A DNA stretch of 64,000 nucleotides, taken from the NCBI RefSeq assembly GCF_044324875.1, contig NZ_CP172185.1. One strand, written 5' to 3'. The DNA comes from Escherichia coli (GTDB taxonomy: Bacteria; Pseudomonadota; Gammaproteobacteria; Enterobacterales; Enterobacteriaceae). Below, piece after piece: positions 43,472 through 45,738 of the stretch. Both the position numbers and the translations under genes were made by a program. The number at the start of each line of letters is the position of its first letter. Positions within the stretch are counted from its first letter, which is position 1. Under the pieces are notes generated by a model. The model was not told the origin of the DNA, made no database searches, and saw only the letters and a list, made by a program, of their open reading frames with translations.

Positions 43472-43862
43472 TTTCCTCTTAGTCTATATTTGAGATGGTG
43501 AGTGAACGAGTGCGTTTTGCTGCCATCTCTGTCCCCCAAAAAATAATCAGTATGAATTGATTGGAGAGCACGACTCCGCTATTTGACCTTAAGAAAGTCG
43601 GCAAGTAATAGTCATAAGTGAGTCTCTTCACTGGCAGACACCTTAGAGATTTACCATCAACTCCCATTCTCAAACAAACATTAATTATTATCAACACATT
43701 CACATTAATTATAAATTATCTCAGACCTTCCTGATAAAAAGATATTAAAGTGAAACATTTTGTTTTTCACATTTTAGTTCATCCCTTTTAGGCGTAAATA
43801 AAGGTAAAAAATAACAATACTATTTTTCTTTCACAAAAGAATTAACAAAAGGTTTTTCAAGG

Positions 43863-44996
43863 ATGAGTGATATTATTTACCTGAACATAACCGGAGAACA
43901 ACAAGGATGTATTTCCTCTCGTTGTGGAACGAGCGCATCAATAGGTAATCGCTGGCAGATTGGCCATGAAGATGAAATCTTCGCGTTCTCGCTCTCTAAT
44001 AGTATTACGAATACAGGCAAAGGGTCACAATTGCATGGCCTTAGTTTCTGTAAATTGATTGACAAAAGCTCCCCGTTACTTATTAACGCTATTAACAATA
44101 ACGAGCAGTTGTTCATGGAGTTTGACTTCTATCGGATCAATAGATTTGGTCGATGGGAGAAATATTACAACATTCAACTTCGCGGCGCGCTCTTATCAGC
44201 AATCAATCACCTGTTTACTGAGAACAATCTGGATACAGAAACCATCACTGTCAGTTATGAATATATACTCTCCAGGCATCTGATTGCTAATACTGAATTT
44301 AGTTATTTGGCATTTCCCGATAACTACAACCGTCTGTTTATACCACGGCCAAAAACTAAAGATGATAATGGCCTCAAAACACTCAATAGTAAAGCGGTTG
44401 GCAGACTGCTTGCTGCTGGCGGCATATACAATGGGAATATCGAAGGATTCAGGGAAACAGCAAACAAGTTGGGAGGAGATGCACCTGCTGGTTACGATCA
44501 AGTTATGGATAACAAAGGGTTACTCATCGCTGGTGCTTCAATAGTTGCTGGAGTTGTTCTGGGAAGAATGAGATTCCCTGATTTGGAATCACTTGAGCAT
44601 TTCGGAGCCAGAGGAGCAGTATCAGGAAGACCATTTAATCCCGACCTTGCCGGTGGTCCAATTGAAAACCTGACGATAGATGGCGTAACAATCAACAGGG
44701 AAGGTATCGCTATTGTTGAAAAGCATATCTCCAGATTTGATCATGATCCAGCTAATGATGTAATGATTTCAAGGCTAAAGAAAATAGCAAATAAAGAATT
44801 GCTTCCTGAAAAATACGATCTGAACTACTATACTCATGAATGTCGCGAGTATCAGCGTTATTGTAATTTAGGATGGGAAACAGGTGAACCGAAAGGTTTA
44901 GATGGATATGAATTATGGAATAATGTACATACTGCAACTCTAGAAGACTTTAAAATTAAAGATACTGACTTATTTCATCCGGATGCAAAAAAATGA
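43863..44996 (+). CDS. Hcp-domain protein with C-terminal extension (candidate Hcp-fused type VI secretion effector toxin)
   Basis: 377-aa ORF in AT-rich DNA. N-terminal ~155 aa follow the Hcp family pattern (YLNITGE...LHGLSFCKLIDKSSPLL...YYNIQL), alignable by eye with E. coli Hcp. The C-terminal ~220 aa have no family I can assign. Family call is by recall, not by search. Confidence 0.7.
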   Translation: MSDIIYLNITGEQQGCISSRCGTSASIGNRWQIGHEDEIFAFSLSNSITNTGKGSQLHGLSFCKLIDKSSPLLINAINNNEQLFMEFDFYRINRFGRWEKYYNIQLRGALLSAINHLFTENNLDTETITVSYEYILSRHLIANTEFSYLAFPDNYNRLFIPRPKTKDDNGLKTLNSKAVGRLLAAGGIYNGNIEGFRETANKLGGDAPAGYDQVMDNKGLLIAGASIVAGVVLGRMRFPDLESLEHFGARGAVSGRPFNPDLAGGPIENLTIDGVTINREGIAIVEKHISRFDHDPANDVMISRLKKIANKELLPEKYDLNYYTHECREYQRYCNLGWETGEPKGLDGYELWNNVHTATLEDFKIKDTDLFHPDAKK

Positions 44997-45250
44997 CGAT
45001 TACGATAGTTGAATTTAACGTGCTGAAAGTTATGGCTGAGAAAGATATTGACTGGAGCTGGATGGTGCTGGATCGTACTTTAGCTATACGAAATATTCCA
45101 GGATTTGGCAACGTAGCGAATATCGTAACAAAGCTGGTTAATCATGGGTTGGTTGATATCGTAAATGGTGAGGGCAACTCTAGACCACGCTACAGAGTTT
45201 CTCAATATGGATTGAATCTTATCAAAGAACAACAAGACAACCTCTTCTGA
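44993..45250 (+). CDS. Small hypothetical protein, candidate cognate immunity protein
   Basis: 85-aa ORF whose ATG overlaps the upstream stop (ATGA at 44993-44996); paralogue of the next ORF; conserved LDRTL-IR-IPGFGNV-NIV-KL--GLV block. Confidence 0.6.
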   Translation: MTITIVEFNVLKVMAEKDIDWSWMVLDRTLAIRNIPGFGNVANIVTKLVNHGLVDIVNGEGNSRPRYRVSQYGLNLIKEQQDNLF

Positions 45251-45309
45251 TCCAGCCATTACAGGAGCATGATTTACATTGTGATCTTTCAATAAGATAC
45301 TCATCAATT

Positions 45310-45570
45310 TTGGTACAGAATATCGTGATCACTAAAAATGAACTTAACGTGCTGAACGTTATGACTGAGAAAGATATAAACTGGAACTGGATGAATCTCG
45401 ATCGCACACTATCCATAAGGCAAATTCCAGGATTCGGGAATGTTGTTAACATTGTTAACAAATTAGCTAACGAAGGTTTGGTTATTATTGAGGATAGCGG
45501 GAATAAGTCTATGCCTCACTACCACGTTAGTGAAAAGGGATACAATCTCGTGCAACGTGAGAATAAATAA
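45310..45570 (+). CDS. Small hypothetical protein, paralogue of the preceding gene (candidate second or orphan immunity protein)
   Basis: 86-aa ORF with roughly 60% identity by eye to the 44993-45250 product, plus clear nucleotide similarity; track start is TTG at 45310, and an in-frame GTG at 45325 is an alternative start. Confidence 0.5.
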   Translation: MVQNIVITKNELNVLNVMTEKDINWNWMNLDRTLSIRQIPGFGNVVNIVNKLANEGLVIIEDSGNKSMPHYHVSEKGYNLVQRENK

Positions 45571-45676
45571 CGTAGCGTTGATTACTGAACGGAATCACTC
45601 AAAACTGTGTTTTGCGAAAAAAACGATTCGGTTATTTCTGCTCCTGAAGATCAGCTTCAATCTGGCACTCATGCAA

Positions 45677-45702
45677 AATGGCTTCCAGTGCTGGAAGCCA
45701 TT
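45677..45702. repeat. 26-bp near-perfect palindrome between the insertion and the metE 3' end
   Basis: aatggcttccag tg ctggaagccatt; possible bidirectional terminator. Confidence 0.5.
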
Positions 45703-45738
45703 ATCGTACTGCAATTTACAGTGACTCGTTAATATTCG

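Follow-up and report, generated by a model that had tools for sequence, protein, structure and literature searches.

In polymorphic toxin loci, including those of Rhs proteins, contact-dependent inhibition (CDI) systems and the auxiliary type VI secretion system (T6SS) clusters of Vibrio cholerae, a new toxin tip arriving with its own immunity gene displaces the old tip, and the old immunity gene stays downstream, where it can protect against non-kin strains. Orphan modules of Rhs and CDI loci usually retain a fragment of the toxin. Among effectors delivered by fusion to Hcp, the Hcp-ET proteins of Escherichia coli carry HNH DNase, Tle1 lipase, pyocin S3 or colicin DNase toxins and are encoded with ETI immunity genes (PMC6730261). 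In Pantoea agglomerans pv. betae, the effector Pse3 is secreted by the T6SS and kills a mutant without pse3-psi3, which is protected again once it carries Psi3 on a plasmid; what the C-terminal domain of Pse3 does was not known to the authors of that study (10.1101/2023.07.16.549128). Here, we analyzed a 64,000-nucleotide stretch of E. coli DNA (contig NZ_CP172185.1, assembly GCF_044324875.1; hereafter the window) in which an Hcp fusion gene is followed by two small paralogous genes. This island very probably encodes an Hcp-fused antibacterial effector together with two Psi3-family immunity proteins that act in the cytoplasm, of which the first is cognate to the adjacent toxin and the second an orphan.

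The effector gene (43863–44996, + strand) encodes 377 aa, with an Hcp/TssD domain at residues 1–147, a linker at residues ~172–235, and an all-helical toxin domain at residues ~247–377. That the gene upstream of the small pair is an Hcp fusion, as the original prediction had it, was borne out by matches to TIGR03344 over residues 1–147 (E 2.8e-36, 124.9 bits for a cut-off of 58.9) and to PF05638 over residues 6–135. The C-terminal extension after the Hcp domain is 230 aa long, which gives the protein the domain architecture of an Hcp-ET effector (an Hcp/TssD domain plus an extension of at least 120 aa). The overall layout is also that of the Hcp-ET/ETI systems, in which the gene for Hcp with its C-terminal toxin precedes at least one small immunity gene, at orphan loci in pathogenic E. 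coli. The conserved toxin domain itself, which comprises the C-terminal ~130 residues, matched none of the Pfam families of described Hcp-ET toxins and no relative of solved structure. Within it, His324, Glu325, Glu328, Arg331, Trp351 and His355 (numbered along the full-length protein) are invariant, whereas residues ~296–320, 341–350 and the tail are variable. Two described effectors were considered and set aside as possible identities: Hcp-ET1, which carries an HNH/colicin E7–E9 domain and is hence a different effector, and the Citrobacter koseri effector T6EC4 (PMC11148199), in which Hcp is fused to a domain lacking annotation; T6EC4 was set apart by its description, this domain being described as Tox-REase-5-like, a misfit for the helical model obtained here. 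A literature search by accession of the E. coli proteins found no mention of them.

The first small gene (44993–45250, + strand, 85 aa) starts with an ATG inside the toxin stop codon, the toxin TGA lying at 44994–44996 and the overlapping ATGA at 44993–44996, exactly as had been read from the sequence. It is followed by a 74-bp spacer (45251–45324, + strand) and by the second small gene, which ends at 45570. Two open reading frames (ORFs) of ~85 aa had been proposed, and both are indeed intact; the second, however, is more likely an 81-aa protein starting at GTG 45325 (45325–45570, + strand) than an 86-aa protein starting at TTG 45310, because the NCBI Prokaryotic Genome Annotation Pipeline (PGAP) uses the GTG, the orthologue in an alternative allele of the locus (see below) has an ATG at the homologous codon, and the resulting N-terminus matches the M-x-I-T-x-x-E pattern of the family. 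The two proteins, estimated by eye to be roughly 60% identical, share 47 of 80 residues by BLASTP (59%, no gaps, E 3e-32), and their DNA remains alignable, with 157 of 240 codon-aligned positions identical (65.4%). Substitution analysis agrees with the view that they are diverged paralogues (synonymous divergence dS about 1.5, nonsynonymous divergence dN 0.33, dN/dS 0.22), and the duplication is, judged by this divergence, old. Differences between the paralogues are unevenly distributed: they affect 10 of 16 positions in a predicted wing hairpin, where a nearly invariant R-Y-R becomes H-Y-H, and 9 of 13 in the last helix, vs only 9 of 37 in the core (residues 17–53). The beta-hairpin wing and the last helix thus form a candidate specificity surface. 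Neither protein has a signal-peptide-like hydrophobic N-terminus, which is consistent with a cytoplasmic site of action. Separately, a 94-aa metagenomic ORF begins as the first gene does, for 54 residues, then continues with the sequence of the second from NIVNKLANEGLV onward, and may be either a recombinant of the tandem paralogues or an assembly artefact.

The closest experimentally studied counterpart of these proteins is found next to Pse3. Dataset S1 of the Pantoea study lists a 350-aa protein with a PIX domain (WP_187501333.1) followed, at −7 nt, by Psi3 (WP_033759756.1, 91 aa) (10.1101/2023.07.16.549128). WP_187501333.1 is 69% identical to the E. coli Hcp fusion over 217 residues spanning the linker and toxin domain, and the product of the first small gene shares 38% identity, and that of the second 41%, with the 91-aa protein encoded at −7 nt. 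This 91-aa protein also aligned to the profile of the small-protein family over 81 columns with an hhalign probability of 99.3% (E 1.7e-20), and the same profile recovered a Psi3-like representative at E 4.3e-15. Since the protein in the Psi3 position matches the profile, both E. coli genes can be considered to encode Psi3-family proteins, although identities of only 38% and 41% suggest that they form specificity groups other than that of Psi3. The two loci share the same toxin domain and the same family of downstream small proteins, both are orphans located outside of T6SS clusters, and the Pantoea locus too has an extra, orphan family member after Psi3. They differ in delivery, with a VgrG-binding PIX domain in Pse3 and a covalent Hcp fusion in E. 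coli. Protection by Psi3 and toxicity of Pse3 were established in Pantoea.

Beyond this pair of loci, the small gene tracks the toxin domain and not the delivery module. Relatives of the toxin domain (59–98% identity) occur in Enterobacterales behind at least three N-terminal modules, namely Hcp, PIX and PF26362/DUF8093, with the 140-aa PIX delivery domain carrying it in Pantoea, Lonsdalea, Klebsiella and Cronobacter. At 57–62% identity, the same domain also forms the end of a PAAR protein and of a 4,193-aa Rhs protein, both from other lineages, and in the AlphaFold database it was matched to the C-termini of numerous proteins named as S-type pyocin, colicin-like or LXG proteins. In every examined locus with the toxin motif, whether an Hcp, PIX, PAAR or Rhs fusion, the start of a gene of the small-protein family lies 4 to 11 nt ahead of the toxin stop, and the 4-nt overlap seen in the window is found again next to this domain in Lonsdalea, Enterobacter and Pantoea, as well as in one PAAR and one Rhs locus. 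This start/stop adjacency to one toxin domain is a signature of a polymorphic-toxin immunity gene. The type of small gene furthermore matches the tail of the toxin: tails ending in LFHPDA-K are paired with the first-gene type, those ending in LYHQDALDYDN with the second-gene type, and those ending in LYHPDAPSW with the Psi3 type. The first gene lies immediately downstream of a Pse3-type toxin domain in the window, and the orthologue of the second gene does so in the alternative E. coli allele. As a side observation, the PF26362/DUF8093 module (~165 aa, starting MFTLYMKWDA) bears the same linker and toxin domain (e.g., A0A0P8KEK9), which makes it a further candidate, besides Hcp and PIX, for a domain used in T6SS delivery.

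The original prediction had also pointed to a loose winged-helix resemblance and, with it, to a regulatory role as an alternative. The resemblance was upheld, the regulatory role was not. Neither small protein had any match in Pfam, NCBIfam or the PDB sequences, yet the AlphaFold2 (AF2) model of the first gene product (pLDDT, the per-residue confidence, 87.9; pTM, the predicted template modelling score, 0.77) shows an H-b-H-H-b-b-H topology, and its best Foldseek matches against the PDB are the winged-helix regulators RosR, PadR and MepR/MarR, at template modelling (TM) scores of 0.65–0.78 and identities of only 12–23%. The fold comprises the three helices and beta-hairpin wing of these regulators, and explains why many of the 171 close homologues found across Enterobacterales by word-indexed search carry the NCBI name “MarR family transcriptional regulator”. 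Both proteins could therefore be small winged-helix transcription factors, regulating the effector operon or other genes without neutralizing the toxin, a possibility to which the structural matches, the MarR names borne by many homologues in NCBI and UniRef, and sub-threshold matches to the winged helix-turn-helix families EarA (31 of 56 family members) and HTH_45 (9 of 56) all lend some weight. However, no significant match to MarR/PadR or any other helix-turn-helix model of Pfam or NCBIfam was obtained for any of the 56 members, with no MarR-type family at E ≤ 0.1 and no NCBIfam match at E ≤ 1. MarR proteins are ~140–150 aa long with N- and C-terminal dimerization helices, whereas the members here are 81–91 aa, about half that length, and consist of a winged helix-turn-helix core and one C-terminal helix; the MarR-type structural matches align over 78–93 columns of chains of 134–147 residues. 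The proteins also have a near-neutral isoelectric point (6.5–6.7) and a putative recognition helix, VANIVTKLVN, that is mostly hydrophobic. The genes follow a single toxin domain, with a start/stop overlap, on five different delivery scaffolds, and their homologue Psi3 was shown by experiment to be an immunity protein. A purely regulatory function thus appears very improbable, and “MarR family” is not supported by these sequence comparisons as a family assignment. The family is instead small and narrow, as a profile built from 56 homologues recovered only 65 clusters out of 1.84 billion representative proteins. These are stand-alone proteins of ~80–90 aa or shorter fragments, apart from a few longer ORFs and one spurious hit, an 851-aa representative (P0253, 15 matching stretches) that proved to be an unrelated repeat protein.

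Which of the two genes belongs to the adjacent toxin is best addressed by comparing alleles of the locus. Using a sensitive DNA search, the two-gene region was matched in 848 E. coli genomes, 729 of which carry both genes (form A; 95–100% identity over the two-gene query) and 119 a single-gene allele, in which there is only an 80–90% match to one 246-bp gene. The second gene is intact in all 729 form-A genomes, and no complete E. coli genome has the first gene without the second. In the three single-gene loci that we inspected, the same Hcp gene is present, annotated as a pseudogene in two of them. The toxin tip of this alternative allele is 71% identical to that of the window over the last 107 residues and ends in LYHQDALDYDN vs LFHPDAKK here, and its sole immunity gene is 88–89% identical to the second gene and 62% to the first. 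As the second ORF is the closer relative of the only immunity gene in the alternative allele, the first ORF would be cognate and the second orphan: the latter is nearest to the immunity gene of another allele, and the toxin next to it has an immunity gene of its own.

The boundaries between the two alleles are consistent with this assignment. DNA identity is ~97–98% from ysgA to ~44720 (Hcp codon ~286), drops to ~70% through the toxin tip and first gene, and recovers to 87.8% from 45326 and 98% in metE, and dS between the alleles rises from 0.065 in the N-terminal 286 codons to 1.37 in the toxin tip. This delineates an allele-specific cassette (44720–45325, + strand) that includes the toxin tip from ~codon 287, the first immunity gene, and the spacer. 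The simplest history suggested by these sequences would be a cassette replacement, in which an incoming tip and immunity gene displaced the resident tip and left the resident immunity gene downstream, the closest relatives of the incoming pair being found in Citrobacter and other Enterobacterales. Unlike in Rhs and CDI loci, there is no detectable remnant of the displaced tip upstream of the E. coli orphan gene; when aligned locally to the 3′ ends of six toxins, the 74-bp spacer did not outscore shuffled sequences (p about 0.17–1.0; about 0.25 for a toxin remnant in the spacer), and the spacer was thus rejected as a remnant of the displaced toxin 3′ end.

The same comparison bears on whether both genes might instead be cognate to the upstream toxin and provide dosage or redundancy, as in Hcp-ET3-4. 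Tandem immunity paralogues occur there too, and all three duplicated immunity genes contribute to protection (PMC6730261); likewise, the genes in the window are same-strand paralogues of one family that are always found together in form-A genomes. Their divergence is ancient, however, and the differences cluster in the hairpin of the wing and in the final helix; the orthologue of the second gene stands alone beside a toxin tip differing by 29% in its last 107 residues; and the breakpoint pattern fits cassette replacement rather than local duplication. We therefore consider a double cognate immunity quite unlikely, and the tandem genes here appear to differ in specificity and not to be redundant copies. 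Overall, the arrangement of a cognate plus an orphan immunity gene put forward at the outset is supported by the Psi3 homology, by the linkage to one toxin domain on five scaffolds, and by orthology with the alternative allele.

Several observations nevertheless weigh against this reading of the locus. With regard to the ribosome-binding site of the second gene, a check suggested in view of its TTG/GTG start, there is no obvious Shine-Dalgarno sequence; given also the non-ATG start and the lack of coupling to the gene before it, the second gene may be expressed only poorly. It has diverged from the extant immunity gene of the alternative allele (12% in DNA, 9–10 aa) by more than the flanks have, which makes cross-protection plausible but not assured. 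The 91-aa Pantoea protein was equated with Psi3 via the accession of its neighbor, its length, and its overlap with the toxin gene. The fold of the family is a classical DNA-binding fold, and the proteins might conceivably bind DNA. Finally, the Hcp-toxin gene is frequently inactivated, and the module may thus be purely defensive or decaying in many strains. With regard to such inactivation, an IS1 insertion interrupts the Hcp-toxin gene in 14 of 25 listed E. coli records, an internal stop is present in two loci of the alternative allele, those for which the annotation was looked at, and a frameshift occurs in E. coli MS 110-3. Downstream of the broken toxin genes, the immunity genes are still intact, suggesting that immunity is kept longer than the toxin.

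Given these features, the second gene could be a non-functional relic of the toxin-tip swap, which would fit its GTG/TTG start, the lack of a clear ribosome-binding site, the uncoupled 74-bp spacer with its weak promoter match, and a dN/dS against its orthologue (0.39–0.52) above the 0.16 of the toxin N-terminus. These values are still below 1 and, along with the ratio of 0.22 between the paralogues, indicate purifying selection on both genes; the ORF is also uninterrupted in 729 of 729 form-A genomes, and orphan family members have been kept in several other genera. A relic is thus unlikely. The orphan copies elsewhere include those following a different toxin tip in Citrobacter Hcp fusions and the one following Psi3 in Pantoea, and a metagenomic contig has an orphan family member in an array with a Barstar gene. 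Toxin-less tandem pairs were observed in Cronobacter and Pseudescherichia vulneris, the second member being 35–41% identical to the E. coli genes; the Cronobacter pair adjoins genes of BREX (bacteriophage exclusion) or restriction-modification systems. Within the spacer of the window, positions 45273–45301 contain a sigma-70-like match (TTTACA, 17 nt, GATACT) that agrees with 9 of 12 consensus positions, an agreement that by itself is not evidence of function. Such a promoter-like match could give the orphan gene its own transcription.

A more speculative scenario would reconcile the fold with the toxin linkage, in that a winged-helix DNA-binding domain would have been recruited as an immunity protein and perhaps still bind DNA, both neutralizing the toxin and repressing the operon in the manner of a type II antitoxin, with the orphan driven by the spacer promoter. 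The toxin in this scenario would have a fold without solved relative that is shared with S-type pyocin-like bacteriocins. We regard such a dual function as improbable.

Returning to an effector with a cognate and an orphan immunity protein, we infer a possible mode of action from the homology, gene order, coupling geometry, allele structure, and predicted fold of the module. The effector would be encoded at an orphan locus, outside of any T6SS cluster, and the first gene would be translationally coupled to the toxin through the ATGA and hence made along with it. Its product would pair one-to-one with the helical domain at the C-terminus of the toxin, thereby blocking the toxin in producer and sister cells, with binding and neutralization likely taking place in the cytoplasm, by analogy with how polymorphic-toxin immunity proteins generally work. 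Recombination would have swapped the last ~90 toxin codons, bringing in a new immunity gene, and the old one would have stayed downstream. The second gene would then be the descendant of an immunity gene that partnered another toxin tip and, if expressed and of matching specificity, may guard against E. coli strains still firing the other toxin allele.

The linker between the Hcp and toxin domains (window positions 44376–44567, residues ~172–235) is a Gly/Ala-rich hydrophobic segment, KTLNSKAVGRLLAAGGIYNGN...GLLIAGASIVAGVVLG, conserved among Hcp, PIX and DUF8093 effectors and also present in Citrobacter Hcp fusions that bear a different toxin tip. It may represent a membrane-interacting element that helps entry into the target cytoplasm.

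The module as a whole forms a horizontally acquired island of 2.2 kb (43472–45738, no strand assigned) between the convergent genes ysgA (stop 43471) and metE (stop 45739). The gene order is ubiB-ubiJ-ubiE-rmuC-udp-ysgA on one side and metE-metR-yigM-yigL-pldB on the other, based on the ORF list and the annotation of the identical region in strain 7/2. The G+C content of the island is 33–45% vs 52–58% for its flanks, and the stop codons of ysgA and metE, 2.2 kb apart in the window, are separated by 39 bp in E. coli K-12. We detected the island in 857 of 5,426 complete E. coli genomes, in a chromosomal location in every case. Its three same-strand genes, i.e., the Hcp fusion, the 85-aa ORF and the 81/86-aa ORF, are named by PGAP as tssD and two hypothetical proteins. 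An additional ORF of 40–41 aa (45607–45732), located between the second small gene and the metE stop, is common to both alleles (...KNDSVIS...KWLPV.EAI...), and its counterpart is annotated as a hypothetical protein in NCTC9064. In E. coli MS 110-3, hxlB, beside a ptsG-like gene, stands upstream of the island in place of ysgA, which indicates that the left flank of the locus differs among strains.

Hcp-fused effectors with immunity genes and orphan immunity genes left after tip replacement were thus already known, as was one characterized family member, Psi3. What this analysis adds is the assignment of the E. coli genes to the Psi3 family, the two-allele structure at the ysgA-metE site, the predicted winged-helix fold, and the widespread mislabelling of these proteins as MarR regulators. 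It provides a predicted function for E. coli genes so far annotated as hypothetical (e.g., c4753 in CFT073) or as MarR regulators, which are present in roughly one complete E. coli genome in six, including uropathogenic and avian pathogenic E. coli (UPEC and APEC) and strain Nissle 1917. By extension, toxin immunity is the more likely role of the hundreds of proteins that bear the name “MarR family transcriptional regulator” in databases and belong to this family. Taken together, the ysgA-metE alleles appear to represent a clean natural case of tip replacement in which the old immunity gene was kept, and could offer an uncomplicated model for work on the specificity of immunity and on compatibility among E. 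coli strains.

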